A DNA stretch of 33,567 bases. Source: a virus. Taxonomy: Duplodnaviria; Heunggongvirae; Uroviricota; Caudoviricetes. Position numbers and translations under genes: made by a program. Under the pieces are notes generated by a model that was given only the letters and a program-made list of their open reading frames with translations, was not told the origin of the DNA and did no database searches. Numbering within the stretch: the stretch's first letter is position 1; every line of letters begins with the position of its first letter. Location of the stretch: positions 1 through 33,567 of the IMG/VR virus record IMGVR_UViG_3300025292_000002; one strand, given 5' to 3'. This document shows positions 1,116 to 33,508 of the stretch, piece by piece.

Positions 1116-1133
1116 TTGAATATTAATATTCAA
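1116..1133. promoter_or_regulatory. 18-bp palindrome TTGAATATTAATATTCAA (perfect copy)
   Basis: One of 8 copies; directly after the terS stop codon. Confidence 0.8.
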
Positions 1134-1168
1134 CTTTGAGATTCATATATATTAGGAGGAAATTTTTT

Positions 1169-1732
1169 ATGGCATGGGAACAATTTCAAACACCGTTTCA
1201 AGTTTATCCAGACACATGGAAATTTAAAGATGAAACAGGTAATTATGTAAAGCAACAATGGAAACAAATTAATGGTAAATGGTACGTATTCGCTGACAAT
1301 GGCGAAATGATTCGTGATTGGTTCTGGAATGGATACTTCTGGTTCCATTTAAACACTGATGGCTCTATGACAACTGAAGGCTGGGCTAACATTGATGGCG
1401 ATTGGTACCGTTTCAACTCAGAAGGTCATATGCAACTTGGGTGGCAACAAATTGATGGCGGTTGGTATTACCTTGAACATTCTTCAGGTAGAGCAGAAAA
1501 AATGTGGTACAAGAGTGCCGATACAAATTGGTATTACTTATCACCTGGTAACCAAACTGTTGATGGCGTATTCTTCAAAGAATGTCAAGCACTTGAAAAT
1601 GTTTGGTTAGAAGAAGCAGGAAAATGGTATTGGTTCAAAACTGCTGGTACTATGGCTCGCAGTGAAACTATCGTTATTCGAGGAGTTTCAAGAACATTCA
1701 ACTCAGATGGTTCTTGTGTGAATCCAAATTAA
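1169..1732 (+). CDS. Cell-wall/choline-binding-type repeat protein without a catalytic domain
   Basis: About six ~20-aa repeats (W-x-x-I-x-G-x-W-Y-x-F...G-x-M); RBS AGGAGG before ATG1169. Confidence 0.8.
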   Translation: MAWEQFQTPFQVYPDTWKFKDETGNYVKQQWKQINGKWYVFADNGEMIRDWFWNGYFWFHLNTDGSMTTEGWANIDGDWYRFNSEGHMQLGWQQIDGGWYYLEHSSGRAEKMWYKSADTNWYYLSPGNQTVDGVFFKECQALENVWLEEAGKWYWFKTAGTMARSETIVIRGVSRTFNSDGSCVNPN

Positions 1733-1739
1733 TTAACTA

Positions 1740-1769
1740 GGGAGCTCATTTGAGTTCCCTATTTTTTTT
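1740..1769 (+). terminator. Intrinsic terminator
   Basis: GGGAGCTCA-TT-TGAGTTCCC plus T-run. Confidence 0.75.
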
Positions 1770-1789
1770 ATTATATAGGAGGAATTAAA

Positions 1790-2851
1790 ATGGCAGAATT
1801 TAAACTACCACCAACGGAAATAACAAACATTGAGGAAGCCAAAGAAATTCCTTGGGGAGTACAACATGTAAATGCATCACAATTTTGGGATAAAGGAACT
1901 GGGAAAGAAGTTGTTGTGGCAGTACTTGACAGTGGCTGTGATAAAGACCATCCAGATTTAAAAGGAAAAATCCTTGATGGACGAAACTTCACATACGATT
2001 ATGACCAAGACATTTTGAATTATAGTGACAATCGAGGACATGGAACGCATGTTGCTGGTACCATTGCTGGAATCAAAGATGGCAAAGGTATTGTCGGTGT
2101 AGCTCCAGATGTAAAACTTATCATCGGTAAAGTTTTAAATGCAGCTGGTGGTGGCGATTATGACGGAATCATTAATGGTATTCGTTGGGCGACAAAATGG
2201 AAAGGACCAAACGGAGAAAAAGTTCGTGTTATTTCAATGTCACTTGGAGGACCTTACGACATCCCCGAGCTTTACGCAGCTGTTAAAGAAGCGGTTGACA
2301 ATGATATAGTTGTTGTATGTGCTGCTGGTAACGCTGGTGACGGAAATAGCGACACTAACGAATATGCTTATCCTGGTGCCTATGATTGTGTTGTTGAAGT
2401 TGGAGCTGTAGGTCGAGACAATCAACTTTCAACTTTTTCAAACACGAACAATCGAATTGATTTAGTAGCTCCTGGTGAAAATATCTTATCATCTGTTCCT
2501 GGTGGAGCATATGCTGAAATGACAGGTACGTCTCAAGCTGCACCACACGTAGCTGGAGCAGTTGCTTTAATTATCAGTGCTTATGAAAAAGTTGGTCAAA
2601 CATTAACTGAACCAGAAATCTTTGAGCTGTTGTTGAAACATATCAAACCACTGAACGGTCATAAGAATGGTTTCGGTCATGGTGTATTAGATATGTCAAT
2701 GAATGCTGAAGGAATCAAACCAGCGGAAAATAAACACGAACCATTGATAATTTCTAAGGAGAATGGTTTCTTCATTAATATAGGCCCATTTGAAACAAAT
2801 GAAAAAGCCATTGAATTTTTTAGCAAAATCAACCTTACAAATCTAAAATAA
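1790..2851 (+). CDS. Subtilisin-family (S8) serine protease, intracellular IspA-like
   Basis: Catalytic motifs VLDSG, HGTHVAG, GTSQAAPHV and oxyanion AAGN; no signal peptide; short N-terminal extension. Confidence 0.92.
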   Translation: MAEFKLPPTEITNIEEAKEIPWGVQHVNASQFWDKGTGKEVVVAVLDSGCDKDHPDLKGKILDGRNFTYDYDQDILNYSDNRGHGTHVAGTIAGIKDGKGIVGVAPDVKLIIGKVLNAAGGGDYDGIINGIRWATKWKGPNGEKVRVISMSLGGPYDIPELYAAVKEAVDNDIVVVCAAGNAGDGNSDTNEYAYPGAYDCVVEVGAVGRDNQLSTFSNTNNRIDLVAPGENILSSVPGGAYAEMTGTSQAAPHVAGAVALIISAYEKVGQTLTEPEIFELLLKHIKPLNGHKNGFGHGVLDMSMNAEGIKPAENKHEPLIISKENGFFINIGPFETNEKAIEFFSKINLTNLK

Positions 2852-2861
2852 ACAATATAAT
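2833..2861 (+). promoter_or_regulatory. CCTTACA-N16-TATAAT promoter-like motif
   Basis: Same spacing at 3359, 20148, 22921, 27556, 28128 (+) and 32137 (-). Confidence 0.7.
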
Positions 2862-2913
2862 AGTAAAGTAATCAGCGAAACCGATTACAAATAAATTATT
2901 AGGAGAATGCTAA

Positions 2914-3276
2914 ATGGCAAAAACAACAGAATACATCGAGTTAAACACAGGTTCTTTCCCGTATGGTGGAAACATGGTTGTTTCAACAGACGAAAACAAC
3001 ACGCAAGTATTTGTTTCATGTGAACCGGCATGGCAACAAGCATGTACTGTAAAAATTACTTTACAACGTCCAAATCAAAATGAAGCTTGGGTTGCTGTAA
3101 GTGAAACTCGTCAAGGCGATATTTGGAATGATTTCATGAGTAAACAACCTTACCATGCTCAATTCAACAACGTTGCTAAAACTGGTCAAGCAATCCGTGC
3201 TCGTATTTACATGTACGACCCATGGGGTGGCGGACAATACATGCAAGACGATTCAAGTGCTGTTTGGATTCGTTAA
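2914..3276 (+). CDS. Hypothetical beta-rich protein, paralog of 28579..28947
   Basis: RBS AGGAG; shares WNDFMSKQxYxAxFNN(V/I)AxxGQxxRxR with 28579..28947. Confidence 0.8.
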   Translation: MAKTTEYIELNTGSFPYGGNMVVSTDENNTQVFVSCEPAWQQACTVKITLQRPNQNEAWVAVSETRQGDIWNDFMSKQPYHAQFNNVAKTGQAIRARIYMYDPWGGGQYMQDDSSAVWIR

Positions 3277-3280
3277 TTAA

Positions 3281-3306
3281 GGAAGCTCTTCGGAGCTTCT
3301 TTTTTT
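3281..3306 (+). terminator. Intrinsic terminator
   Basis: GAAGCTC-TTCG-GAGCTTC plus T-run. Confidence 0.85.
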
Positions 3307-3319
3307 ATTTGGTTATAAA

Positions 3320-3337
3320 TTGAATATTAATATTCAA
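3320..3337. promoter_or_regulatory. 18-bp palindrome (perfect copy)
   Basis: Between a terminator and a CCTTACA-class promoter motif. Confidence 0.8.
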
Positions 3338-3358
3338 AAAATTAATTATTATTCGCCA

Positions 3359-3387
3359 CCTTACAAAGCACCATGTTTCAATATAAT
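3359..3387 (+). promoter_or_regulatory. CCTTACA-N16-TATAAT promoter-like motif
   Basis: Upstream of the RBS of 3421. Confidence 0.7.
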
Positions 3388-3420
3388 AGTAGTGTAATCA
3401 ACGAATTGGAGGAAACAATC

Positions 3421-3840
3421 ATGGAAAACATAGACAAAATTCTCAAATTGGAAGAAGCAATCTTAAATTTATCATCAGCAAAAAGCAAAATTGAAGAAAT
3501 TTCCGATGTAGCTTTTACTGGTTCATTGGAAGATAAAATTTCTGCTGCAATTATTGAAGCAAAAGCAATGAAAGATTCGTTGGTAGAGCAATTAATTCCT
3601 ACATATAATAGAGGAGAAGCTTCAAAAGAAGTTATCAAAGGCATTTTCTTCTCAACTGTTTCTGGTGGCACACAAGTGAGATATGACAATCTCAGTGGCT
3701 TCGATGTTGAAGTTTTAGAACCACAAACAAATATCACACGAACAGTTTATAATGGCAATTACAGAATTGTAAATAGCGATACAAAATCGTTAATTTTCAC
3801 AATCTCAGGAAAATCAACTGAAGTTAAAATTATTCAGTAA
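3421..3840 (+). CDS. Hypothetical protein (139 aa; N-terminal helical, C-terminal beta-rich)
   Basis: RBS GGAGG before ATG3421; the upstream ATG3373 lies inside a promoter-like motif. Confidence 0.75.
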   Translation: MENIDKILKLEEAILNLSSAKSKIEEISDVAFTGSLEDKISAAIIEAKAMKDSLVEQLIPTYNRGEASKEVIKGIFFSTVSGGTQVRYDNLSGFDVEVLEPQTNITRTVYNGNYRIVNSDTKSLIFTISGKSTEVKIIQ

Positions 3841-3847
3841 TATAAGC

Positions 3848-3875
3848 TGACCTGAGCATGTCGAAAAACTGCTTA
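3848..3875 (+). ncRNA. Putative cis-regulatory H-type pseudoknot, copy 1
   Basis: TGAC-CTGAGCAT-GTCG-AAAAAC-TGCTTA upstream of the RBS of 3902. Confidence 0.6.
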
Positions 3876-3901
3876 AATATTAAATTGGAGGTATTTTATT
3901 T

Positions 3902-4732
3902 ATGACAAGAACAAAAATTATGCCTGGTGAATTATTTATTGTTGAATACGTAGACGGAGCTATTGTAAAACGTTGGGCAATTAATGATTCTAAGAATTAT
4001 ATTGAACTTGGCGAAGGACGTAAAGCTGCAAAAGGTTTCACCGATTTATTAGTTGAACCAGACGACGCTAAATTAACATTAGCTGATTCTCGTTATCATG
4101 TTAAATCAAATGCTGAAGCTATTAAATTTGTATCTGATGCTGGATTTGAAGAATTTATCTTTGCGGAAGTTAAACTTCAAAAATTGAAATTAGCTAAAGA
4201 AACACAAGTTTATAGCAAAACAGGTTCTCTGTTAGGAACTCTTCCTGCTGGTACGGAAATTGGAACGGATACTGGTACTGCTGGTAACTCAATGCCATAT
4301 TTAATGGTTGCGAACTGTTACAAAAATGCTCAAGGATGGCAATTCCTTAACCAAACAAATTATTCATACGGATTTGTGAACGTGCAACAAGCTTTCGGCT
4401 TGCAACAATTCGATGATAAACGAACTTTAGTTACTGCAAAAACAGAAAACGTAGCACAAGTTGATTGGGCATCTGTTGCTTTAGCAATTGGTACGAAAGA
4501 ACCTGAAACTTTCCTACGTGGAGATTTAACTGCTCCTACAAAAGATGTTGTTGTAACAAATGTTAACGACCATTTTGCTTCAATTGATTTGGCTAAATCT
4601 GAGCTACGTGACCCAATTCAGTATTTTGCAAATCTAAAGAATAAAGCCTTTGTTGAAAAATATTTAGGCAAAATCAATGCTACGAAAGCTGCGGATTTCA
4701 AGAAACAAGCTGATGCTTTCAACGCTAAATAA
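3902..4732 (+). CDS. Hypothetical protein (276 aa)
   Basis: RBS GGAGG, long ORF, own terminator; no family recognised with confidence. Confidence 0.8.
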   Translation: MTRTKIMPGELFIVEYVDGAIVKRWAINDSKNYIELGEGRKAAKGFTDLLVEPDDAKLTLADSRYHVKSNAEAIKFVSDAGFEEFIFAEVKLQKLKLAKETQVYSKTGSLLGTLPAGTEIGTDTGTAGNSMPYLMVANCYKNAQGWQFLNQTNYSYGFVNVQQAFGLQQFDDKRTLVTAKTENVAQVDWASVALAIGTKEPETFLRGDLTAPTKDVVVTNVNDHFASIDLAKSELRDPIQYFANLKNKAFVEKYLGKINATKAADFKKQADAFNAK

Positions 4733-4744
4733 TCAGTAATTTAT

Positions 4745-4773
4745 GAGGACTCTTCGGAGTCCTTATTTTTTTT
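4745..4773 (+). terminator. Intrinsic terminator
   Basis: AGGACTC-TTCG-GAGTCCT plus T-run. Confidence 0.85.
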
Positions 4774-4845
4774 GGTTTGCTATTTATATTGTCATGAGCC
4801 ACGTATATATACTGTATAAAACATACATTGAAAGGGTGTGAAAAA

Positions 4846-6546
4846 ATGGTATCTGAAACAATCTTAAATCATAAAGCTTATATTTATGCTAAAGATGTTG
4901 CTGAAGGAAAGTTCGTTTCTGCGAAATACATTAAAATTGCTTGTCAAAATTTCTTAGATGACGTACACAATCCAGATTGTAAGTACAAAATCGACGAAAA
5001 ACAGCTAGAATTGATTACAAATTTAACAAAATTAATCAATATGGCTACAGGTTTAAAGGTTGGTATTTCAGCTCATGAAGCTTTGGCTGGTTTCCAGTGG
5101 TTCTTCCTTGTAAACGCTTTATGTTGGGTACACAAAGACAAGCCAGAAAAACGTAGATATGAAAAATCTGTACTTTTGATTGCACGTAAAAGCGGAAAAT
5201 CATTCTTAGTTGGTCTAATTTTCATAATTCTTATGATTATTGAGCCAGAATTCTCAGAATTTTACTCAGTTGCGCCAGACCGTGAGCTTTCTTCAATTGT
5301 AAAAAAAGAAATTCAACAAATGATTGATGCTTCACCGTATCTTGGCAAGTATTTTCAACCTTTACGAGCAGAAATTCGTTGTACGTTGAAAAAATCCAAG
5401 TTCGTGCCACTTGCTACGTCTGAAAACCGTATGGACGGACGTTTAGCTAACGTATTCGTTGCCGATGAAGTAGGAGCTTTACGAAATCGTTATCCAATTT
5501 CAGCCATGGAATCATCTCAGATGAACTTGGTCAACAGAACAGGTATTCTGATTTCGACAGCTTATGAATCTCTGCAAAATCCTATGACGGAAGAAGTGGA
5601 ATATGCTGAAAAAGTTTTAGAAGGTAACGTTGAAGACGAAACTTTATTCGCATTGCTTTACAAGCCAGACGACCCTGAAGATTGGTTATCCGATGAAGCG
5701 CTTTTACAAGCCAATCCGCTTGTATTTGACCTTCCAGAAAATTTGGAACAGCTAAAAAAACAACGTAAGAAAGCTGTTGAAATTCCTTCTGAGCAACAAA
5801 ACTTCAAAACTAAGCACATGAACATTTTCGTTGATGGTGATATTAGTGAAGTTTATGTTTCTACGGAAGATTTACGTAAATGTAAGGTAGAATCTTACAA
5901 TTGGCGTGGCAGAGATGTATATATCGGGGTCGATTTATCACAAACTAACGATAATACTGCAGTAGCCATGGTAACTTACGATGCAGACCTTAGGAAATAT
6001 GTTGCGAAAGTTTGGGCATTTTTACCTGGCGCAAACATTGAAACTAAGAATAAGCTCGAGAAAATTGATTACAGAATCATGCAGAAAAACGGTTTTTGTT
6101 TCTTTTCTGGCGATAAAGTAATTAATTATGGCGAAATTGAAAAATTTGTTAATGAATTGCCAGAAAAATATGGCGTGACGATAAAAAATATCGGTTATGA
6201 CCGATACAACTGTATTTCTTCAGCAAATAAATGGTATGAATCTGGTCATGAAGTAACAGAAATCAAACAGCATTCATCTGTGCTTCACCCAGCCACCAAA
6301 TTGCTGAAGGAATCTATTCTGAAACAAGATTTTGCTTACGAAAAAAATGAATTGTTCGAGCGAAACGTTTCAAACGCTCGTGAAGTTAAAGATAACAATT
6401 TAAATAGCTATGTCAACAAGAAAAAATCAACTGGTAAAATTGATATGTTGGCTGCTACGATAAATGCTATGGTTCTTTGGAATCTTGAACGTGAAGAAGG
6501 ATTGAGCGTTTATGAGGAAGACGAACGTGGTTTGATAGTATTGTAA
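4846..6546 (+). CDS. terL: Terminase large subunit
   Basis: Walker A (ARKSGKS), Walker B (FVADEVG), nuclease YIGVDLSQTND and KIDMLAA; start placed at ATG4846. Confidence 0.95.
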   Translation: MVSETILNHKAYIYAKDVAEGKFVSAKYIKIACQNFLDDVHNPDCKYKIDEKQLELITNLTKLINMATGLKVGISAHEALAGFQWFFLVNALCWVHKDKPEKRRYEKSVLLIARKSGKSFLVGLIFIILMIIEPEFSEFYSVAPDRELSSIVKKEIQQMIDASPYLGKYFQPLRAEIRCTLKKSKFVPLATSENRMDGRLANVFVADEVGALRNRYPISAMESSQMNLVNRTGILISTAYESLQNPMTEEVEYAEKVLEGNVEDETLFALLYKPDDPEDWLSDEALLQANPLVFDLPENLEQLKKQRKKAVEIPSEQQNFKTKHMNIFVDGDISEVYVSTEDLRKCKVESYNWRGRDVYIGVDLSQTNDNTAVAMVTYDADLRKYVAKVWAFLPGANIETKNKLEKIDYRIMQKNGFCFFSGDKVINYGEIEKFVNELPEKYGVTIKNIGYDRYNCISSANKWYESGHEVTEIKQHSSVLHPATKLLKESILKQDFAYEKNELFERNVSNAREVKDNNLNSYVNKKKSTGKIDMLAATINAMVLWNLEREEGLSVYEEDERGLIVL

Positions 6547-6564
6547 TTGAAAATTAATATTCAA
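6547..6564. promoter_or_regulatory. 18-bp palindrome (1 mismatch)
   Basis: TTGAAAATTAATATTCAA between the terL stop and the portal RBS. Confidence 0.8.
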
Positions 6565-6574
6565 AAAGGAGAAA

Positions 6575-10347: not shown

Positions 10348-10352
10348 ATCAT

Positions 10353-10425
10353 GTGTTTGTAGCTCAGTTGGTAGAGCAGGAAGCTGTTAACTTCTTGGTC
10401 GGTGGTTCGAGTCCATCCTTGCACG
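10353..10425 (+). tRNA. tRNA-Asn(GTT), acceptor stem imperfect (two U-U), no encoded CCA
   Basis: D arm AGCTCAGTTGGTAGAGC, anticodon arm GGAAG-CTGTTAA-CTTCT, T arm GGTGG-TTCGAGT-CCATC. Confidence 0.75.
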
Positions 10426-10502
10426 TTTAGGAGAATGGAGTAATTTCTTCATTTTCCTCCATTTGATTTGATTTGATTTCCTCCGATGTTTCGGAGGTTT
10501 CT

Positions 10503-10576
10503 AGGAGCTTAGTTTAGAGGTAAAATATCGGTCTCCAAAACCGAGGTCACAGGTTCGATTCCTGTAGCTCCTGCCA
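10503..10576 (+). tRNA. tRNA-Trp(CCA)
   Basis: Acceptor AGGAGCT/AGCTCCT, anticodon arm TCGGT-CTCCAAA-ACCGA, T loop TTCGATT, encoded CCA. Confidence 0.93.
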
Positions 10577-10577
10577 T

Positions 10578-10649
10578 GGGGTATTAGTATAGCGGTTAGT
10601 ATTACTGGCTTCCACCCAGTAGGCGTGGGTTCGATTCCCACATACCTCT
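10578..10649 (+). tRNA. tRNA-Gly(TCC)
   Basis: Acceptor GGGGTAT/ATACCTC, anticodon arm ACTGG-CTTCCAC-CCAGT, T arm GTGGG-TTCGATT-CCCAC. Confidence 0.9.
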
Positions 10650-10654
10650 TTCAT

Positions 10655-10726
10655 GGGGATATAGTGTAGCGGTTAACACACATGGCTGTCTACCATGTAG
10701 CACGGGTTCGAGTCCCGTTATCCTCG
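10655..10726 (+). tRNA. tRNA-Asp(GTC)
   Basis: Acceptor GGGGATA/TATCCTC, anticodon arm CATGG-CTGTCTA-CCATG, T arm ACGGG-TTCGAGT-CCCGT. Confidence 0.9.
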
Positions 10727-10964
10727 TTGTATACTCACACCGCAAAAAGGCGACTATGCGGGCTACGCTGTGGTAGCAATGATAAGCGCTTATCATTGAA
10801 GAAATAAAAGGCACAGAATCGGATGAGATGAGTACATCTGAATCGGGCAAGAAGATGGTTCTTGCTTGTCGTCAAAAAAAGAGCTTAATATGTTTTCTTC
10901 CGCAAGGAAGTTTTCCGTTCAAAAGGCGCTCGAATAAAAAAACGAAACTAACCTTTTAGAATAT

Positions 10965-11041
10965 GGCGCATTGGTGAAGCGGTCTAACACACTCGACTTT
11001 CTATCGAGCATTCAGGGGTTCGAATCCCCTATGCGCTTCCA
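10965..11041 (+). tRNA. tRNA-Glu(TTC)
   Basis: Acceptor GGCGCAT/ATGCGCT, anticodon arm CTCGA-CTTTCTA-TCGAG, T arm AGGGG-TTCGAAT-CCCCT, encoded CCA. Confidence 0.9.
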
Positions 11042-11042
11042 T

Positions 11043-11117
11043 ATAGACGTAGGCTAGAGGTCAGTCACTCCGTTTGGGGCGGAGGTCACGCAGGTTCGAA
11101 TCCTGCCGTCTGTACCA
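11043..11117 (+). tRNA. tRNA-Pro(TGG)
   Basis: Acceptor ATAGACG/CGTCTGT, anticodon arm CTCCG-TTTGGGG-CGGAG, T arm GCAGG-TTCGAAT-CCTGC, encoded CCA. Confidence 0.88.
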
Positions 11118-11118
11118 C

Positions 11119-11191
11119 GCTGAATTAGCTCAATTGGTAGAGCAGCTGATTTGTAATCAGCAGGTTGCGGGTTCAATTCCTGCATTCAGCT
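11119..11191 (+). tRNA. tRNA-Thr(TGT)
   Basis: Acceptor GCTGAAT/ATTCAGC, anticodon arm GCTGA-TTTGTAA-TCAGC, canonical D arm. Confidence 0.93.
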
Positions 11192-11253: not shown

Positions 11254-11451
11254 ATGAAAGTTAAATTTAATACTGCAACAGTTTTTGCTTCTCCTAGTTT
11301 ATCAATCGCAGGAAATGAAATCGTTGATTTAGACGAACATCTTGTAAAGCCATATATTGAAGCTGGCATTGCAACGGTTGTTGAAGAAGAAGTTGTTGAG
11401 GAAAAACCAAAACGTACAACAAAGAAAAAAGCTAAAGAAGATGTTGAGTAA
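11254..11451 (+). CDS. Small head-associated hypothetical protein
   Basis: RBS AAGGAG; short protein with a basic tail, of the kind found before head-tail connector genes. Confidence 0.7.
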   Translation: MKVKFNTATVFASPSLSIAGNEIVDLDEHLVKPYIEAGIATVVEEEVVEEKPKRTTKKKAKEDVE

Positions 11452-11490
11452 AATCAACATTTTACAATAAAAACATATAAGGATAGGTGA

Positions 11491-13480: not shown

Positions 13481-13546
13481 TAACGAGGGGATTTTCCCCT
13501 TTGTTTTAACGGTTTGAAAATTTCGAATCGTTAAAAGAAAGGGAAA

Positions 13547-13564
13547 TTGAATATTAATATTCAA
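13547..13564. promoter_or_regulatory. 18-bp palindrome (perfect copy)
   Basis: Upstream of the tail chaperone RBS. Confidence 0.8.
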
Positions 13565-13596: not shown

Positions 13597-13911
13597 ATGG
13601 AAAATACAATCACTTTAAAAGGACAGGAATATAAAGCAAAGCTTGATTTTGCAACACTAGGACGAGTTCAACTTGCATTACAAAAACAAGGAATTAAAAT
13701 TGGCTTCCAACAAATTTTCGCTGAAGTTCAAGAACAAAACTTTGCAGTAATCAATGAACTTATCATTCAATCAATTTTACGTTGTCACCCACAAATTAAA
13801 CGTGAATCAATCGAAGAAAAATTAGACCTTGGTGAATTAGAAAATGCGTTCACATTCATGGCTAAATTAATCGAAGATTCATTACCAAAAGCTGACGATA
13901 AAAAAAAATAA
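13597..13911 (+). CDS. Tail assembly chaperone (gpG analogue)
   Basis: Between major tail and tape measure genes; ends in A9 run plus TAA. Confidence 0.85.
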   Translation: MENTITLKGQEYKAKLDFATLGRVQLALQKQGIKIGFQQIFAEVQEQNFAVINELIIQSILRCHPQIKRESIEEKLDLGELENAFTFMAKLIEDSLPKADDKKK

Positions 13912-17100: not shown

Positions 17101-17560
17101 AGTAGATAAAGTTAAAGGTGCATTCGGCTTCTCAGTTGATGCTTCGGTAACTCCTGCTGGTGGTGCTATTGCTCCTGCTTCAATGGGTGCAATGTCTACA
17201 GCTACTGCGACAGCTCAAGGCGGAACTATCATGGATTCTATTGCTGGTCTACGGAACACAATGGGCATGGCTGATTTCTCAAGTTCTAAGTACAACGCAG
17301 GTAATGGTACTACAATCATTGATATGGCACCTTCTACGAAGCGTGATAACATGCTGATGGTTAAGAGCTTAGAAACTCAGAACAAAAACCTTGAAACACA
17401 AAACAATTTGCTTATGCAAATGGTTAACATGTTAGCTGCAGGCCAAAACATCGCTGTCAATGTTGATGGTCGAGAAGTAGCGAAAGCTACTTCTAGCTAC
17501 ATGGATACTGAATTACGTCGAGCACGTGACAGTAAATCAAGAGCGAGAGGTGGAAACTAA
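14186..17560 (+). CDS. Tape measure protein
   Basis: Over 1100 aa, N-terminal coiled coil, central hydrophobic segment, 11-residue W/F-periodic repeats; RBS AAGGAG before ATG14186. Confidence 0.95.
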   Translation: MAMNQEIAALAVSLTLDGQNFNKQMSAINKEIKNLDRDFKSAGQGVQNFEQTFTGLAAKMEVTQKKIDLMNTKLEQQKKAYQSLEGTLTSQVAKLNQLESTLGKSSPEWQRQAELVQRNSEKLNRLGSDINSTKGNLNQLQSTLRSVETSLQSSSQAAEKASRDFSKIGENAKAMGESMTGPSLAVAGIGAASTAAYLESDNSLMKIKANLGQTGKEAESTRDRVKDLADRGFDFGNATQAMISVQQVLGDTMDPKEVDNMVATLSSFSETMDMDVNESVRAVNSVMKSYGVTGREAMDVIAAGQREGLNYSGEFLDSLYEYSPQFSKLGFTAKDTLGIMKAGMQDGAFSMDKLADGVKEFSLRVTDVDKNGSEALQNLGFNTDEVSAAMNKGGDAGKNMSFKIAQALAGVENETDRNKYALALFGTQYEDVGDAAYKALAGMKNNTVETAGAADQARKAFEDSFGARMKGSLSQMKDALIQIGTAMLPAIEGAAKAGVEFAKWFSGLNPSVVTAITVIGGLVIAMAPVLMIVGQITMGIGTLVTALGKLGPMFSLIGKGAKLVGLAFTGLSLPMIGIIAAIAAVIAIGVLLWQNWDTVMAYCSKLGESVSAAWSSMVDYVGNAMSAIGNWISTKWAEITALWDASMAWISATASSIWAGITAVFDSAMNAIGSVISFVWEAIKTGWNTSLNFISSTASAIWEGIKAVFTGAMNGIKTVIDVVWNGIKAAWNMYLTALTTVATTIWNGIKAVFNLYMTAIKTVVTTVWSAIQTVWSVGFNVIKTVASTVWNAIKSIFTTVLSTLQSAVSAAWNAIKSITSSVFNAVKSVVTTVWNGIKSVITTVLSAVKSVVTSGFNAVKSVVTSVSNAVKSVVTTVWNGIKTVISSVINAVKSVVSSGFNAIKSVVTSVSNAIKSAITTVWNGIKSVITSATNGIKSTVSSVFGSLERIMTAPFKAAKSAIDGIMGGIGKAVDKVKGAFGFSVDASVTPAGGAIAPASMGAMSTATATAQGGTIMDSIAGLRNTMGMADFSSSKYNAGNGTTIIDMAPSTKRDNMLMVKSLETQNKNLETQNNLLMQMVNMLAAGQNIAVNVDGREVAKATSSYMDTELRRARDSKSRARGGN

Positions 17561-18300
17561 TGTTTAACTTTAACAACATTGATTTTTCCGCTTTACCAAT
17601 CAAAATTGTTGACATCAAACGTCCATTAATTGCTCCACAAAGAATTTCATCATCATCTATTGAAGGTAAAGCTGAGGAGGTCTTCCATCGGAAGACGTCT
17701 CAGTCCTACAATATTGATGTTGAGTTCTATTTCTTCAGCGACACTGGTTTAACATTGCGTTCAGATATTCGTGATTTAGCTGGTATGTTAGATACGTCTG
17801 CTCCAGCTAAATTGATTTTCAAAGATGAGCCAGATAAGTTTATTTATGCTATCGTTGAAGAAACTGACATTGAAAGAAAAGGACGTTACGCAATTTGTAA
17901 CGTTTCTTTCAAATGTTTAGACCCACACTGGTACGCATTAATTGACGATGTTTTCACATATACAACTGGTGGAGCTAAATCATTCACACGAAAAGGAAAC
18001 GCAGAAAGCTATCCGATAATTGAAATTGAAGGAACATCTGGTGCTTATACAGTATCAGCTAACGGTTCATCAATGAAATATTCTGGTTCATTATCTGCTG
18101 GAGAAAAATTAGTAGTTGATAGTGCGTTATTGACCGCTTACATTTTACAAACAAATGGAGAAAAACGGTCTGTTTTAACAATGCTGGATAAACTTGATTT
18201 CCCAGTGTTAAACAAAGGAAAAAATGATTTTACAATTACTGCAAGTGGCGGAGCTACTTTGTCAAAATGTAAACTATCATGTAATAGCAGATGGAAATAA
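17560..18300 (+). CDS. Distal tail protein (Dit)
   Basis: Directly after the tape measure gene; L.F.DEPDK..YA and F.C.DP.WY motifs. Confidence 0.85.
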   Translation: MFNFNNIDFSALPIKIVDIKRPLIAPQRISSSSIEGKAEEVFHRKTSQSYNIDVEFYFFSDTGLTLRSDIRDLAGMLDTSAPAKLIFKDEPDKFIYAIVEETDIERKGRYAICNVSFKCLDPHWYALIDDVFTYTTGGAKSFTRKGNAESYPIIEIEGTSGAYTVSANGSSMKYSGSLSAGEKLVVDSALLTAYILQTNGEKRSVLTMLDKLDFPVLNKGKNDFTITASGGATLSKCKLSCNSRWK

Positions 18301-18314: not shown

Positions 18315-18332
18315 TTGAAAATTAATATTCAA
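18315..18332. promoter_or_regulatory. 18-bp palindrome (1 mismatch)
   Basis: Between Dit and the RBS of 18351. Confidence 0.8.
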
Positions 18333-18350: not shown

Positions 18351-19400
18351 ATGGCTAAAACGCCTTTTACAGATTTAAAAAGTGAGGACATTTTGTCTGC
18401 TCATATAACTGGTGTTCAACATGCTGTAAATAAACTTGAAACGGTTTTAAATTTAAAATCAGCAGCTATTACTGGGTTAACTTTAACTGCAGTAGCAGAC
18501 CAACAAGATGCTAGTTTACACCGTTTAATTTATGAGGGAAGTATCAGAAACTGGCTTGCAGCTCCAGCTCCTGTAATTAAACGAAATGGAACAGTTGTAC
18601 CTGTATCTGAGTATAAAATTCAACCAGCTTACGGTGTAGTTGTATTCAAGACGCCACAAAGTGTAACGGACGTTATTACTGCTGATGTTACACATGTAAC
18701 GGAAGCCAGCGACGTTTTAGAAGGTTTAGACAAACGTGTAGTAACGTTAGAAAATACTTCTGGCGGAGGCGGTGGAGGAACTACTGCTTCAATTATCGGA
18801 TATTCTTCTGGTGGAGATAAGTTTGATACTGATGGCACATACACAATTCAAGCTGGAGACGTTTATTTAACACATTCAGCTAAAACTGCTCCTACATTGG
18901 TTCCAGACATCGGAGCAGGGGCTAATACTATTGACGCTTTCCCATTCGTTGTAACACAACGAACAATCATTGATAAAGTAAAAGTTGAAGTTACAAAACA
19001 AAACTTTGCTGGTGCAAAAGGAATGATTGGCATTTACACAAGTGCAAACGGTCTGCCACACAAACGTCTTGATTACACAGACGCTTATGATGAAACAGTT
19101 GGGGTAATTGAAAAAGCATTAAAAGGCGGAGATTTAGTTTTAGAAGCTGGTGTTTACTGGATTGGTCGTTTTTCAAGTGCAGGAACACAGTACAGAGCAT
19201 TAAATGCTGCTGACGCTACCAAGCTAAACCTTCCAGTTGGATTACCTACGGACATTCGTGCTCCAGAAACGAAAGCTGCAGGTATTAGAACGTCTTGGGC
19301 TAACAACTCAGTTATGCCTGCTGATTATCCTGCTGGTGGTAAAGCATTCGCTCGTGACCAATACTGTTCACCATTCTACCACATCAAAAAATCTTACTAG
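18351..19400 (+). CDS. Putative tail-tip/baseplate structural protein
   Basis: After Dit; two beta-rich domains joined by a Gly linker (SGGGGGGT); function not recognised. Confidence 0.6.
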   Translation: MAKTPFTDLKSEDILSAHITGVQHAVNKLETVLNLKSAAITGLTLTAVADQQDASLHRLIYEGSIRNWLAAPAPVIKRNGTVVPVSEYKIQPAYGVVVFKTPQSVTDVITADVTHVTEASDVLEGLDKRVVTLENTSGGGGGGTTASIIGYSSGGDKFDTDGTYTIQAGDVYLTHSAKTAPTLVPDIGAGANTIDAFPFVVTQRTIIDKVKVEVTKQNFAGAKGMIGIYTSANGLPHKRLDYTDAYDETVGVIEKALKGGDLVLEAGVYWIGRFSSAGTQYRALNAADATKLNLPVGLPTDIRAPETKAAGIRTSWANNSVMPADYPAGGKAFARDQYCSPFYHIKKSY

Positions 19401-19427
19401 TAAAATGCGGATTTTACACATAGAAAA

Positions 19428-28011: not shown

Positions 28012-28127
28012 GCTTTACTTGATGTAAAGAACTGTATATATATTATATAAGAGCTAAGGAGAAATCCTTGGCTTTTATTTTTTTTAACAAAAAGCTGAAG
28101 TAAAATCACGATTTTATTATATTGGCT

Positions 28128-28156
28128 CCTTACAACTCGGAGTAATTCAATATAAT
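28128..28156 (+). promoter_or_regulatory. CCTTACA-N16-TATAAT promoter-like motif
   Basis: Upstream of the RBS of 28203. Confidence 0.7.
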
Positions 28157-28202
28157 AGTATAGTGACAAACAAACAACTAAGAAAATCGGAGGAAATTTA
28201 TT

Positions 28203-28523: not shown

Positions 28524-28528
28524 TTGGC

Positions 28529-28556
28529 TGTCCTGAGTATGACATAAAAATGCTCA
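28529..28556 (+). ncRNA. Putative cis-regulatory H-type pseudoknot, copy 3
   Basis: TGTC-CTGAGTAT-GACA-TAAAAA-TGCTCA upstream of the RBS of 28579; compensatory A-U to U-A change in stem 1. Confidence 0.6.
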
Positions 28557-28578
28557 ATTTTTATTTGGAGGACGTAAT

Positions 28579-28947: not shown

Positions 28948-28950
28948 TTT

Positions 28951-28977
28951 GAGGAACTCTTCGGAGTTCCTTTTTTT
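28951..28977 (+). terminator. Intrinsic terminator
   Basis: AGGAACTC-TTCG-GAGTTCCT plus T-run. Confidence 0.85.
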
Positions 28978-28990
28978 ATTTACATATTAA

Positions 28991-29008
28991 TTGAATATAA
29001 ATATTCAA
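28991..29008. promoter_or_regulatory. 18-bp palindrome (1 mismatch)
   Basis: TTGAATATAAATATTCAA directly before the recombinase RBS. Confidence 0.78.
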
Positions 29009-29025
29009 AAAAGGAGAAGATATAA

Positions 29026-30009
29026 ATGGCTGTAAATAAAGGAGATAAAATATTTAACCCTGAAACATGGGAAAAAGTAAACCCAGAAAATAGAGCAATC
29101 TTGGACGATTATGTTCTTGAAATGAAATCTAAAGGTAAATCGAAAGGGACAATATATCAATATTCTGCTGATATTAAAATGTTCTTCTGCTGGGCACACG
29201 ATAACGGAAATAAACCAATATTAGATATGAAAAAACGTGAGTTCAGACGTTTCTTCCTTGAAATGAAAGACCGTGGCACATCGGCAGCTCGTGTTAACCG
29301 TGTACAGTGTTCAATTCGTAACCTGTTAGAATTTTGTACTGAAGACGATGACGAGTATGAAGATTACGAAATAAATGCCATGAGAGCTATCAAAGGTTTA
29401 TCTAAAGAGCCTGTGCGTGAAATTCATTTCGTTAAAGATGAGCATGTTCGTGCAATGGTTGAAAAGCTTGTCGAAGCTGGCAAGTATCAACGTGCCTTGT
29501 ACCTAACACTAAGTTATGAATCTTGTGGGCGTAGGAATGAAATGGCACAGGTTTTAAAACACGATTTTTTAGAGAATAATCGTACAAATGAACTTGTTGG
29601 TAAACGTGGTAAAAAATACAAAGCTTTATATTTTGACCGTGCTCGTGAAATTGCTAAAATGTACTTCGAGCAACGTGGTGAGGACGACATTGATAGCTTG
29701 TGGACAGTTGGTAAAGGCGAAACAAAACGCCCTGCAACATACGACAACTTATATCAATGGGCTGTTTCATTGCGTAAAGAGCTTGAAGAAGTTTCTGGAG
29801 AACACGTTGAAATCAATGCTCATACATGGCGCCACAGTGGTTTAGAAAACTATGAAAATGGTACGCACTACGTTTTAAAACAACTTGGCAAAGACAAATT
29901 GCCTTTAGAAGTTTTAAAAGTGTTAGCAAACCATTCATCAATCGAGACAACACAATCATACTTGATGAATAAAGACGATGAGCTTTTAAACACTGCTTTC
30001 GGATTATAA
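29026..30009 (+). CDS. Tyrosine recombinase (phage integrase / XerC-D-like)
   Basis: N-terminal SAM-like domain; catalytic R (GRRNE), K (GKRGK), HTWRH and NHSSIETTQSY. Confidence 0.9.
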   Translation: MAVNKGDKIFNPETWEKVNPENRAILDDYVLEMKSKGKSKGTIYQYSADIKMFFCWAHDNGNKPILDMKKREFRRFFLEMKDRGTSAARVNRVQCSIRNLLEFCTEDDDEYEDYEINAMRAIKGLSKEPVREIHFVKDEHVRAMVEKLVEAGKYQRALYLTLSYESCGRRNEMAQVLKHDFLENNRTNELVGKRGKKYKALYFDRAREIAKMYFEQRGEDDIDSLWTVGKGETKRPATYDNLYQWAVSLRKELEEVSGEHVEINAHTWRHSGLENYENGTHYVLKQLGKDKLPLEVLKVLANHSSIETTQSYLMNKDDELLNTAFGL

Positions 30010-30056
30010 AACAAAAAAGAGTTACTTGATTTAATTATTTCAAATCAAGTAACTCT
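30010..30056 (-). terminator. Intrinsic terminator between convergent recombinase and 30346 genes
   Basis: 14-bp stem GAGTTACTTGATTT/AAATCAAGTAACTC, T-run on the minus strand. Confidence 0.75.
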
Positions 30057-30346
30057 AATGTTTTGTTAAGCTTATTTTCAATGTCTTCCTTGCGTTGTAA
30101 TGATTCCCATTCTCTATCAAAAGCTTTTTCTTCATCTGTTAACTCCTCATCGCCCGTAATATTATTGGCTTTAGCATAAGCTTCATATTGAGCCACACGA
30201 ATTTCCCTGCGTTCCTGAATTTCCGCAATTTTACTCATATCTATATTATCATCAGCTGGAACACTTGTTAATACAAGGTAAGCCATTGTAAAAATCCCCA
30301 TAATCACTGCAAAAGTAAATCCAATTTTATCCATAGTTTTATTCAT
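30035..30346 (-). CDS. Small protein with N-terminal transmembrane anchor
   Basis: Hydrophobic residues ~9-29; RBS GGAGGAG; TTTACA-N17-TATAAT promoter at 30451..30423. Confidence 0.75.
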   Translation of the reverse strand: MNKTMDKIGFTFAVIMGIFTMAYLVLTSVPADDNIDMSKIAEIQERREIRVAQYEAYAKANNITGDEELTDEEKAFDREWESLQRKEDIENKLNKTLELLDLK

Positions 30347-30512
30347 TTTAATTCACTATCTCCTCCAAATTTTTTATTATGTAAATGTGGCACACTTTGA
30401 TGTGCTTTATTAGTATAATACTATTATATATGAACCAATACGGATTGTAAACTATTTTTTGAAAATTTTTTAAAAATAAAAACGGAGCTCAAATTGAACT
30501 CCGCCTTCATTA

Positions 30513-30530
30513 TTGAATATTAATATTCAA
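30513..30530. promoter_or_regulatory. 18-bp palindrome (perfect copy)
   Basis: In the non-coding interval between two leftward genes. Confidence 0.8.
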
Positions 30531-30654
30531 TTACTCATACTCACTCTTACGAGCTTTTCTCTGTGTAAATCTATAAGTTAATACCTTCCCCTAACAAAAT
30601 CAATTATATCACACAACAAATGTTAACACAATAAAAAAATAGACGAATTTTCGC

Positions 30655-31278
30655 CTATTTTGTATGTTCCTTAATATAATTGTCGTACACATAAACCACT
30701 TCACCGTCGCCAGCACCAGCTTTGGCTGAATCGTATATGTCTTCTGTTTTTATGCCATTTATTTTGTGGTCAAGGTCGTGTAAAATTCGATGCGTATAAA
30801 TTAATCCAACCCAATCCTTGTTTTTAACAGCAATATCAAGCACGTTTTTAGCTCGTTCCAAATCTTCTTTCAAATCGCCTTCACTTTCGTTTGCAGCTTC
30901 TTGTAATGTTGTTGCTAATAATTTAAATCCCCATTCATTTTTGTCCCAACTGCTGTCGTCATTGCGATAAGTTTTATCATGCTCCCAACCGACAAGATTG
31001 TTTAAATCAGCGTGAGCATCGCTTATTTTTTTCTCTTTTGAAACTTTAACCGTTTCTTCTGGCATTTTAATTTCTTTTGTTTCCGTCTTTGTTTCTTTTG
31101 TTTCAATTTTTTCTTTTGTTTCAGTTTTTTCTTTCACTTGAGCTTGAGCAGCTTTTTCAATTTTCTTATCGTTATCTATAGACAAATACATCGACGCACC
31201 AGCAAATAACAATCCTGCTAAACCAATCCCGCCAAACGCAATAATCAACAATGTCTTGATTGTTTTTTTCATTTTCAT
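30655..31278 (-). CDS. Membrane-anchored hypothetical protein (207 aa)
   Basis: Basic N-terminus, TM helix, K/E/T-rich linker, helical domain; TTGTAC-N17-TATAAT promoter at 31334..31306. Confidence 0.78.
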   Translation of the reverse strand: MKMKKTIKTLLIIAFGGIGLAGLLFAGASMYLSIDNDKKIEKAAQAQVKEKTETKEKIETKETKTETKEIKMPEETVKVSKEKKISDAHADLNNLVGWEHDKTYRNDDSSWDKNEWGFKLLATTLQEAANESEGDLKEDLERAKNVLDIAVKNKDWVGLIYTHRILHDLDHKINGIKTEDIYDSAKAGAGDGEVVYVYDNYIKEHTK

Positions 31279-31342
31279 TTCTCCTAATATTTATTTGTTA
31301 TAAATATTATAACATGGTCTTTAGAACTGTACAAGATTTATA

Positions 31343-31371
31343 TAAAAAAAATACCGTCATTTAGACGGCAT
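31343..31371 (-). terminator. Intrinsic terminator with the stop of the 48-aa ORF in the loop
   Basis: Minus strand ATGCCGTC-TAAAT-GACGGTAT plus T-run. Confidence 0.78.
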
Positions 31372-31507
31372 TTTTATGTTTTTCTTTTCGATTATAAGCT
31401 TTCTTACTTTTATGGCTACCATTGCCACGATGCACTTTCAAGTGTTGTTGCAATTCTTCAGCATCCATTTTTCGTTTGAAGCTTTTTGGTTTAACAGTTA
31501 ATTTCAT
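31361..31507 (-). CDS. Small basic protein (48 aa), BrfA/ArfA-like ribosome-rescue-factor candidate
   Basis: RBS AGGAGG; MKLTVKPKSFKRKMDAEELQQHLKVHRGNGSHKSKKAYNRKEKHKNAV; below ORF-track cutoff. The ORF is well supported; the function is inference. Confidence 0.6.
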   Translation of the reverse strand: MKLTVKPKSFKRKMDAEELQQHLKVHRGNGSHKSKKAYNRKEKHKNAV

Positions 31508-31629
31508 TTTGTTTCCTCCTTGTTTTTCTTTGATTCGAAAATCCTATCATAACAATCTGGGCAACATCTTTTTAATGTTCTCCACACACAGCCATATACT
31601 TCTGTTCCACAACCGTCACATATATACAT
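31504..31629 (-). CDS. Small Cys-rich Zn-finger-like protein (41 aa)
   Basis: RBS AGGAGG; MYICDGCG...CCPDC; its TGA overlaps the ATG of the next gene (ATGA coupling). Confidence 0.7.
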   Translation of the reverse strand: MYICDGCGTEVYGCVWRTLKRCCPDCYDRIFESKKNKEETK

Positions 31630-31683
31630 ATTATCCTCCTTAAGATAAAAGCTGATAGCCAATGGCCATCAGCTCAATATTAA

Positions 31684-32070
31684 TTACATGATTGTTAGTT
31701 TGTATTTTTGAATTAAAATTCCTTTTTCATCGTACACTTCAAAAATTTTGTCAGCAAAGTTGAACATTCTTCCAAGCCATGAGGTAGAATTTGCTGAAAG
31801 AACTTTGTCTTTTCTTCCTTTGATTTTTATGGTACGAGCTGCTTTGGCAGAGTTTGAGACAGTTAAATAATTACCTGTGCCACCTTCGCTAATTGAAAGG
31901 TCTCCCATTTTAACACTGAAATATTCATCAGCAATTACTTCAACAACATTTTCTTCAGGAACTTCTTCTGAGATATTTAAAGATTCAATAAATGCTGCTA
32001 ATTTTTCAAAAAATTCTTTTTCTTCCGTTGATTTTTCATTTAATAATGCTACGATTTCTTGTTTTGTCAT
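31684..32070 (-). CDS. Hypothetical protein
   Basis: RBS GGAGG before ATG32070; preceded by a CCTTACA-class promoter motif. Confidence 0.72.
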   Translation of the reverse strand: MTKQEIVALLNEKSTEEKEFFEKLAAFIESLNISEEVPEENVVEVIADEYFSVKMGDLSISEGGTGNYLTVSNSAKAARTIKIKGRKDKVLSANSTSWLGRMFNFADKIFEVYDEKGILIQKYKLTIM

Positions 32071-32108
32071 AATGATTTCCTCCAATGTTTTGTTTGATTT
32101 ACTATACT

Positions 32109-32137
32109 ATTATATTGACATGGTAGCAGCTGTAAGG
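32109..32137 (-). promoter_or_regulatory. CCTTACA-N16-TATAAT promoter-like motif
   Basis: Minus strand CCTTACA-GCTGCTACCATGTCAA-TATAAT, after a terminator, upstream of 32070. Confidence 0.7.
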
Positions 32138-32170
32138 AAGCAAATAAAAAAAGATGACATGGCGTCATCT

Positions 32171-32419
32171 TTAGTTTTCGTATGGACGATATTTCTTACG
32201 TAGCTCAACGAGCTCAGCCCTTTTAGCAAACAAATCAGATTTTAAAAACAAGCTAACACATCCTAATTTTTTAACAGGTATTATCTTGCCATTTTTTATC
32301 ATATGTGAAAGTCTAGCTCGAGATATTCCTAAGTATTCTATAGCTTCTGGAGTTGTTAAAACCTCACTCATTATAAACTGTCTTTGTTCTACTACTGGCG
32401 CTTCCATAACTTGTAGCAT
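32171..32419 (-). CDS. Helix-turn-helix DNA-binding protein (excisionase/HTH_17-like)
   Basis: LTTPEAIEYLGISRARLSHMIKNGKI motif. Confidence 0.82.
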   Translation of the reverse strand: MLQVMEAPVVEQRQFIMSEVLTTPEAIEYLGISRARLSHMIKNGKIIPVKKLGCVSLFLKSDLFAKRAELVELRKKYRPYEN

Positions 32420-32472
32420 AATTAATTCCTCCCATTATTCATTTTTATTGGATTCATTAGTAATTTGACAAG

Positions 32473-32715
32473 TTACAAGCCATATTTTTTTAATTCATCA
32501 TTAATTGCTTGTACCCATTCTATATTAGCAAATTCATATTCTTTGCACAGTTTTGAATTTTTCACGATTTTGTCATAGGAGCTTTTTGTGATTTCAACAA
32601 ATTCTTTCATATGCCTGTCTGTGTAAGGAAAAATTTCGAAAAATACTTCATCGTAAGCTATTCCTTCAGACAAATTCAGAGCTTTGTTGGCAGATGTATC
32701 AAAAACATACTTCAT
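32473..32715 (-). CDS. Hypothetical protein (80 aa)
   Basis: RBS GGAGG; co-directional with neighbours. Confidence 0.7.
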   Translation of the reverse strand: MKYVFDTSANKALNLSEGIAYDEVFFEIFPYTDRHMKEFVEITKSSYDKIVKNSKLCKEYEFANIEWVQAINDELKKYGL

Positions 32716-32845
32716 GCACTTCGCCTCCTTTATTAAATTATACTTACATCATAACATATGTGAATAGAAATTTCAACGAAAAAGTTGATTTATTTGATAA
32801 TTTGATATTATCAAATCTGTTAGAGGAAGACAAGAGATAATTTAA

Positions 32846-33475
32846 TTATCCCTCATCTTTTTGGAATCGTTGTTCACAATCACCACAAATGACATTAATT
32901 TCAGGTTTGCTGCTTCTGATGATTGTACCACATTCACATACCCATTTTACAATGTTGCTTTTCTTTTTTGCTTTCTTTTCAGCGGTCATATCTTTTCGAG
33001 CTAATGTAAAAGCTTCTTTGTCAATGTCCCAGCTATTAATGAAATCAATTGTTTCAGGTGTTAGCTTAGAAAATGACCAGCCATATTTTTTATCTGGCGC
33101 ATCATCTTCATAATAGAAGCCACGGTCTTCACTTTCTTGTTTGAATTTTTTATTGTGATATGTGCCACCACGAGAAGTATCTTGAATGTCATTTGTGTGA
33201 CAATATAAATGAATCATTTCATGGTGTAATGTTCTCATGATTTCTTCATAATCACGGTTTAAAAATTCTGCTGTGATTGTGATTTCATGTTTTTCATCAT
33301 CTTTTGTTTCCCATACTTTGCCTGGTGTGAACCAACCATACGCACTTGTTTTACCCTTAGCTTGTACAGCGATGATTACTTGAGGTAATGCACCATTATA
33401 GAAATGTTCATTGAACAGATTAAAAGCTTTATGAAGCTCAGCGATTGCTGGTTGTAAGTTATTTATGTTTGTCAT
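32846..33475 (-). CDS. SprT-like zinc metalloprotease with C-terminal Zn ribbon
   Basis: LHHEMIH (HExxH), H...F motif, C-terminal CECG...CGDC; RBS AGGGG before ATG33475. Confidence 0.85.
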   Translation of the reverse strand: MTNINNLQPAIAELHKAFNLFNEHFYNGALPQVIIAVQAKGKTSAYGWFTPGKVWETKDDEKHEITITAEFLNRDYEEIMRTLHHEMIHLYCHTNDIQDTSRGGTYHNKKFKQESEDRGFYYEDDAPDKKYGWSFSKLTPETIDFINSWDIDKEAFTLARKDMTAEKKAKKKSNIVKWVCECGTIIRSSKPEINVICGDCEQRFQKDEG

Positions 33476-33490
33476 GTTTATTATCCCCTT

Positions 33491-33508
33491 TTGAAAATTA
33501 ATATTCAA
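33491..33508. promoter_or_regulatory. 18-bp palindrome (1 mismatch)
   Basis: Between the SigA-like promoter and the RBS of the SprT-like gene. Confidence 0.8.

Follow-up and report, generated by a model that had tools for sequence, protein, structure and literature searches.

Stoperators of cluster A mycobacteriophages are asymmetric, transcription-oriented sites of 13–14 bp that occur in dozens of copies per genome, some of them within operons, where the phage's own immunity repressor (gp71 in L5), once bound, would block elongation. The global repressors of plasmids, KorB with its operator OB in the IncP plasmid RK2 and ArdK in the IncW plasmid R388, each use one palindromic operator that is spread over the entire replicon at variable distances from promoters and serves leading-region genes (ssb and anti-restriction-type genes) and transfer genes. 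For T4-type phages, promoter-early stem-loops (PeSLs) were reportedly described by Arbiol et al. in 2010. In the phage SPbeta, SPBRE elements, which were predicted in silico years before their binder was found and which control early and lysogeny genes, are bound by the master repressor MrpR (YopR), a protein of tyrosine-recombinase fold that has lost the catalytic residues, and all ten binding peaks of MrpR lie within the SPbeta prophage (PMC10516654). Here we report on TTGAATATTAATATTCAA, an 18-bp perfect palindrome of which a 97.6-kb Bacillus-type phage carries 23 copies with ≤2 mismatches. It was first noticed in an earlier note on the 33,567-nt stretch analysed here (the window), which makes up the opening 33.6 kb of a virus record of 97,567 bp with a rating of complete (IMGVR_UViG_3300025292_000002). 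Our analysis suggests that this word is a cis-acting site in duplex DNA for a symmetric dimer of a putative sequence-specific protein, most likely a repressor, and that it is used genome-wide and across mobile elements of Bacillales, a reading that we consider probable with modest confidence.

A pattern search of the whole genome retrieved 10 perfect, 11 one-mismatch, 2 two-mismatch and one three-mismatch copies of the 18-mer, so that the distribution falls off sharply with the mismatch class; 1.4e-5 exact and 5.8e-4 one-mismatch copies were expected from the intergenic base composition. The eight window copies listed in the earlier note, four perfect and four with one mismatch, were all recovered (Table 1), and searching the window to 3 mismatches gave no match beyond them. 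A similar frequency in shuffled sequence had been judged unlikely there, and indeed the shuffles gave an expectation of 0.13 matches and none of the 100 reached eight. The intergenic placement described for the window also held across the genome, of which 15.1% is intergenic by the open reading frame (ORF) calls of a simple script: 20 of the 21 copies with ≤1 mismatch had no base in a called ORF (P ~5e-18 under random placement), and the only overlap of the remaining copy is with a questionable ORF of 68 aa that runs on the wrong strand. The (T/A)AA flanks noted beside most sites were seen as well, and they are mostly upstream stop codons or a downstream A-run before GGAG. Likewise, the proximity to the Shine-Dalgarno sequence (SD) was confirmed for the sites at 6547, 18315, 28991 and 33491, which lie 2–5 nt from it, and for the copy at 33491, described as standing between a promoter and the ribosome-binding site (RBS), the best promoter of sigma-A type in this part of the genome has its -10 14 nt upstream.

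The placement of the copies was then compared across the phage genome, in which ~38 near-identical promoters (CCTTACA, ~15 nt, CAATAYAATA, then GTAA; hereafter family promoters) drive most genes and usually stand just after a terminator. Eleven copies adjoin an RBS, often straight after the preceding stop codon, and those of the portal, 18351, recombinase and SprT-like genes are among them. Three copies lie 5–7 nt upstream of consensus -35 boxes (65632, 66616 and 81486), four lie 20–21 nt upstream of family promoters (3320, 63359, 74171 and 85962), and two stand between a stop codon and a terminator (30513 and 40690), with a hairpin carrying a T-run (30483–30503) found 9 nt on from the 30513 copy on the minus strand. 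Intrinsic terminators precede the copies at 3320, 13547 and 28991. Promoter-associated copies (33491, 3320, 65632, 66616 and 81486) coexist with copies inside late operons. The commonly carried T6>A variant showed a weak bias to the 5′ half of the word (8 vs 2).

Exact-match scans of viral, genome and metagenome sequences found the identical 18-mer in unrelated phages, head-only satellite-like elements and conjugative plasmids of Bacillales; for the genome and metagenome scans, the carrier loci are the matches listed, and their counts are to be read as at least the numbers given. Beyond single chance matches in AT-rich DNA, four kinds of carriers stand out. The first comprises ~18-kb contigs that share the head genes (G006, G007, L065 and L041), with 9–13 copies each; 29 of their 33 copies lie 3–9 nt, mostly 5–8 nt, upstream of TTGACA-N17-TATAAT promoters, and one precedes the portal gene, a placement like that at 6547 of the window which recurs in L041, L053, L065 and L070. 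The second is formed by head-only, integrase-bearing elements of ~15 kb in Neobacillus, Bacillus and relatives, with 2–3 copies each, and the third is a GC-rich 38.5-kb phage contig, in which each of three perfect copies exactly fills the gap between a stop codon and an SD. The fourth kind is DNA resembling plasmids or integrative and conjugative elements (ICEs) from Bacillus, Cytobacillus, Fictibacillus, Neobacillus, Paenibacillus and one Oscillospiraceae genome, in which the word lies at the promoter or in the 5′ untranslated region (UTR) of a SprT-like gene. Across these carriers the 18-mer stays identical beside neighbouring proteins that have diverged to 36–60% identity, and a unit made up of the site and the portal gene is joined to two different terminase types. 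The metagenome matches listed brought further contexts of the word and no partner common to them. Geobacillus phage GR1 and the plasmid pBS32 of B. subtilis NCIB 3610, with which the phage is syntenic, were also searched and contain zero copies of the palindrome. As a separate observation, G006 and G007 (L218 and L219) carry a uniform spacer, GGAGGAATTACAA-ATG, ahead of nearly every gene start.

The complete B. subtilis plasmid pNIB353_2 carries four copies. Two belong to the sprT promoter, where one provides the -35 and the other stands between the -10 and the SD; of the remaining two, one directly adjoins the SD of ssb and one stands ahead of the conjugation operon. Read from sequence, this is how the operators of a repressor are classically laid out. 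At the corresponding position of other plasmid sprT genes there are related 18-bp dyads, which keep the frame TTGAR-N8-YTCAA and differ in the inner bases, mostly symmetrically. These variants are TTGAATAATATTATTCAA on B. thuringiensis pBMB28, in two copies over the -35/spacer and at +1 (the same two-operator layout as in pNIB353_2), TTGAAACATATGTTTCAA at the sprT gene of a C. botulinum plasmid, TTGAACCATATGATTCAA at that of a 79-kb B. subtilis plasmid and TTGAGACCAAGGTCTCAA at that of B. pumilus pSHB9. The occurrence of two operator words among plasmids of one species, B. subtilis, points to a specificity that is encoded by the element rather than by a host factor. A literature search returned no paper containing the core 14-mer of the palindrome and none linking SprT-like genes to Bacillus conjugative plasmids.

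Some further arrangements of the word were seen in these elements. Arrays of 4–5 degenerate copies at 24–34 bp spacing lie beside the SprT-like gene in Bacillus sp. BP-3 (L212:16820-16948) and Fictibacillus gelatini (L081:4988-5137); in the former, a conjugation operon (Replic_Relax-type winged helix, coupling protein and VirB4-like protein) begins with the SprT-like gene, and the array is followed by short repeats of the CCTTGACCTT type. The metagenome contig Ga0209328_10034730 (L316:844-1380) contains four tandem 173-bp units with one palindrome each, which have an iteron- or centromere-like look and are of unknown origin.

To characterise the changes that the word tolerates, a mismatch spectrum was compiled from 90 copies, taken from this phage and 17 other loci. 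The changes cluster at half-site positions 6 (n=31) and 9 (n=18), positions 2, 3, 4 and 7 are invariant, and symmetry is kept in only 2 of the 12 double changes, the other 10 being uncompensated. This position-specific pattern together with the broken symmetry argues for protein contacts and not for an RNA stem. As far as its letters tell, the 18-mer behaves as double-stranded DNA that is read by a putative symmetric dimer. At sites lying over or abutting a promoter, such as 33491 and the plasmid sprT sites at -35 and +1, a bound protein would control initiation, and at sites filling the gap from a stop codon or terminator to an RBS, as before the portal, 18351 and recombinase genes, its only possible effects would be to stop RNA polymerase during elongation or to delimit a module. 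Because the same word occurs in several unrelated Bacillales elements, the regulator would act in trans beyond the element that encodes it. The shared word may in addition double as a joint for gene exchange between elements, and this use is likely a by-product of its regulatory role. The earlier note had proposed a single dimeric phage regulator that imposes a genome-wide network of roadblocks. The symmetric dimer operator and the network are retained here, in that some copies stand in operator positions and the copies within operons could act only by way of a roadblock; the assignment to a regulator private to the phage did not hold, as unrelated elements carry the same word.

Several results weigh against a dedicated repressor. 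No binder emerged from Pfam and PHROGs searches of ~100 phage ORFs or from all-against-all comparisons of the carriers. In the latter, blastp and phmmer recovered no protein family with members in every carrier class (phage, satellite-like elements, plasmids and GC-rich phage), yet an element-encoded regulator of invariant specificity should be detectable; in the former, Pfam identified no classical repressor and matched only Rha (genome 69629–70204), HTH_17, a sigma factor, a recombinase and HNH nucleases. Furthermore, the placement relative to promoters varies between elements (near -50, near -66, over -35, +8 to +25, or intra-operon), and an SD lies within 8 nt in 23 of the 90 copies, a placement that could suit a role at the RNA level.

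Such a role, in which a hairpin 5′ of the RBS would gate translation, stabilise the mRNA or direct processing, would agree with that SD proximity, with the three gap-filling copies of the GC-rich phage, and with the gut contig L298, where the site lies upstream of a 42% recombinase homologue inside a 38-bp terminator-like palindrome and the word forms the tip of the 38-nt hairpin. The earlier note had offered a 7-bp/4-nt RNA hairpin gating translation as its alternative, which the folds disfavour: the perfect word reaches only -2.8 kcal/mol and the T6>A variant, carried by about one third of the copies, only -0.7 kcal/mol, and in native context the folds were no better than those of shuffles (z-scores from -1.3 to +0.9). 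The uncompensated stem changes also speak against it, as does the self-complementarity of the word, which includes the four central bases and reaches the exact centre although a hairpin loop needs no pairing. No Rfam family matches the palindrome, promoters follow most copies in the related ~18-kb contigs, and on the plasmids the O1 copies cover the -35. An RNA-level function is thus very improbable in our judgement. A module-boundary or recombination linker without a dedicated regulator, acting as a joint for cassette exchange as proposed for the PeSLs, would account for other features: 15 of the 22 site-adjacent genes have no GR1 homologue, the site at 1116 opens a 3.7-kb insert (1169–4732) between the terminase genes terS and terL, which are adjacent in related elements lacking the insert, the site-plus-portal unit is attached to both terminase types, and the sprT cassette occurs together with the site in many backgrounds. 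Left unexplained by a linker are the 18 perfectly kept bases beside such diverged proteins, the tolerance specific to positions 6 and 9, and the operator pairs that sprT promoters carry at the -35 and +1; we consider it improbable as the sole explanation.

That the word is a high-affinity site for a host protein, nucleoid-associated or defensive and with no ordinary regulon, which mobile elements exploit as phi29 does with Spo0A boxes, would suit its identity in elements without any common protein and the range of its carriers over Bacillaceae, Paenibacillaceae and one Oscillospiraceae genome. No host regulon was found, however: in five host genomes the perfect word occurs only on plasmid- or ICE-like DNA and the two-mismatch matches are mostly intragenic, and 84 of the 105 genomes of one family, i.e., 80%, have no copy at ≤1 mismatch. 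The two operator words at sprT on plasmids of B. subtilis also count against a host protein, and the syntenic GR1 and pBS32 manage without the site, so that we assign only a small probability to this explanation. The SprT-like protein could itself be the sequence-specific binder and autoregulator, and thereby the phage's global regulator. It is the sole protein common to the phage and pNIB353_2, and to contig L142 and other carriers; at least 12 independent loci have the site at the promoter or in the 5′ UTR of sprT, neither the protein nor the site occurs in GR1 or pBS32, and the operator word differs in a derived SprT clade. On the other side, the best structural match of its predicted model (pLDDT 85.8) is human SPRTN, a protease that depends on DNA and has a zinc-binding subdomain, at an E of 6.5e-3 with none ≤0.001. 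The protein tree does not follow the operator type, no residues in the alignment separate operator types, and the L142 protein belongs to a clade whose other members have no site. In other phages, homologues stand behind unrelated operators or none, as expected of regulated cargo, and the satellite-like elements and the 38.5-kb phage have sites without sprT. That the SprT-like protein is the binder and its own regulator is therefore judged very unlikely. Its gene is the one that goes with the site on plasmids and ICE-like contigs, and we read it as a target or cargo under tight control rather than the source of the binder.

A dimeric repressor remains the preferred explanation, and several proteins were examined as its possible identity. 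The helix-turn-helix protein at 32171–32419, which the earlier note had named as one candidate, is not supported as the binder: it belongs to the excisionase family (HTH_17), homologues of ~40–51% identity occur in site-less phages (yong1, CBP1 and A9Y) and at the equally site-less locus L358 (46%), and the protein is absent from the plasmids and several other carriers, although homologues of 59–70% identity do sit near sites. The tyrosine recombinase was rejected as an MrpR-like binder: it keeps motifs that read as its catalytic residues, and its orthologues in GR1 (63% identical) and pBS32 have no upstream site. A 157-aa protein without Pfam or PHROG match (genome 40709–41182) is common to G006, G007 and L065 and absent from the plasmids, a ~70-aa family that is frequent among satellite-like elements occurs in neither the phage nor the plasmids, and a zinc-ribbon family (134–166 aa) next to sprT was found at only four plasmid loci. 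Together with the HTH_17 and SprT-like proteins, the 157-aa protein is retained as a weak binder candidate. As for a promoter element in place of an operator, the palindrome arms as a -35, or TAATAT as a -10, fit some plasmids only and not the sites in general. The operator consensus sequences of the ARG box, CodY, Fur/PerR, Rex, LexA, FNR/CRP and DeoR are not known to fit the 18-mer, as either the spacing or the bases differ.

Table 1. Copies of the 18-bp palindrome in the window and other features discussed in the text (window positions unless marked as genome)
Feature	Position	Strand	Context or basis
Perfect copy	1116–1133		Abuts TAA stop of terminase small subunit gene (621–1115); 35 nt before start of 1169–1732 (choline-binding-repeat protein)
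Perfect copy	3320–3337		17 nt after intrinsic terminator 3279–3302; 21 nt upstream of family promoter CTTACA-16-TATAAT (3360–3387)
One-mismatch copy, T6>A	6547–6564		Fills gap from terL stop (6546) to portal SD; portal gene start 6575
Perfect copy	13547–13564		45 nt after terminator 13485–13501; 32 nt before start of gene 13597–13911
One-mismatch copy, T6>A	18315–18332		Between tail gene 17560–18300 and gene 18351–19400; SD 5 nt away
One-mismatch copy, T9>A	28991–29008		18 nt after terminator 28951–28972; 4 nt before SD of tyrosine recombinase gene
Perfect copy	30513–30530		Leftward arm, between two leftward genes: upstream stop near 30655 (~120 nt away), next start 30346
One-mismatch copy	33491–33508		Operator position, ~+8 to +25 of promoter 33550–33522; 2 nt before SD of SprT-like gene
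Sigma-A-type promoter, TTGACA-17-TATATT, extended TG	33522–33550	minus	Drives SprT-like operon
Family promoters	2834–2861, 3360–3387, 28129–28156, 32136–32109	minus (32136–32109)	~34 more across the genome
Tyrosine recombinase	29026–30009	plus	Motifs read by eye as catalytic Arg, Lys, HxxRH, His and Tyr present
HTH_17/excisionase-family protein, 82 aa	32171–32419	minus	Pfam, PHROGs
SprT-like zinc metalloprotease	32846–33475	minus	HExxH and C-terminal four-Cys ribbon
Phage sigma factor gene	genome 44004–44594

The genome that holds these features consists of a rightward structural arm (1–30 kb) and a leftward early/replication arm (30–97 kb). With GR1 and pBS32 it has in common the genes for terminase, portal and tail proteins, tyrosine recombinase, type II topoisomerase subunits, a PolIII alpha-type polymerase, helicase, primase, an actin-like segregation protein and a SigN-type sigma factor, and the counterpart of the family promoter in both is ATTTACGTTT-N9-CAGATATAAATA. 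A second junction palindrome, TAAAAT-N4-ATTTTA, was found at 11449–11464, 19401–19416 and 28101–28116 (3 copies vs 0.08 expected), with ~9 copies in the genome and 8–9 copies in GR1 and pBS32; one of the pBS32 copies occupies the terminator-to-SD slot before the recombinase gene, and here the same slot holds the TTGAAT palindrome at 28991. The insert 1169–4732 holds genes of unknown function besides the choline-binding-repeat gene. Seven tRNA genes (Asn, Trp, Gly, Asp, Glu, Pro and Thr) lie at 10352–11191 between the capsid and head-tail genes, and nothing outside this cluster matched known Bacillus phages at the nucleotide level. A free-standing HNH_3/NUMOD homing-endonuclease gene (genome 55728–56273; L221:2728-3273, minus) lies directly downstream of the palindrome copy at 56293, and its homologues occur in ~10 other site-bearing loci, never beside the sites.

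The unusual property of the word is that unrelated mobile elements carry it in identical form. For the annotation of Bacillales phages and plasmids, the 18-mer is also a practical marker of module boundaries. If one protein reads it, that protein would, in a phage of the pBS32/GR1 type, control accessory genes and genes for packaging, tail and replication, as well as the establishment genes of Bacillus plasmids (ssb and the SPRTN-like protease) and their transfer operon. This would be an unusual regulatory cross-talk between classes of mobile elements and could be tested in B. subtilis by using pNIB353_2-type plasmids with the same operators. It is conceivable, though we think it rather doubtful, that otherwise unrelated Bacillales elements, among them a large plasmid-like phage, head-only satellite-like elements, small phages and conjugative plasmids, use one operator word as their common regulatory currency, so that a single trans-acting regulator from one class of element could silence or release the whole set at once. 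In effect, satellites and plasmids would then sense the state of a resident phage, or the phage that of the others.

Among the known systems, SPBRE/MrpR, the stoperators and the plasmid regulons of the KorB/ArdK type are the nearest, and none of them fits in the defining details. The sites resemble stoperators in that many copies of one word stand in short intergenic gaps genome-wide, including gaps within operons. The close likeness drawn in the earlier note did not hold up, because stoperators are asymmetric and oriented and the 18-mer is perfectly palindromic; moreover, the scans of the phage ORFs showed no recognisable immunity repressor, and the word is common to plasmids and satellites. 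In common with the KorB and ArdK regulons, pNIB353_2 has two operators at sprT, one at ssb and one ahead of the conjugation operon, at variable distance to the promoters; unlike in the KorB regulon, neither the scanned phage ORFs nor the pNIB353_2 ORFs near the sites include a ParB-family protein or known global repressor, and the hosts are Gram-positive. With SPBRE the word shares the form of a short repeated element at intergenic and promoter positions of a large Bacillus phage, SPbeta being temperate, and it differs from the MrpR system in that the window recombinase keeps the catalytic residues, has orthologues without the site, and is accompanied by an 18-mer that occurs in many unrelated elements. 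The palindrome-plus-consensus-promoter cassettes before almost every small early gene of G006 and G007 are like PeSLs in marking exchange points, whereas only 3 of the 23 copies in this phage have the cassette form, and the conserved unit is the 18-mer alone.

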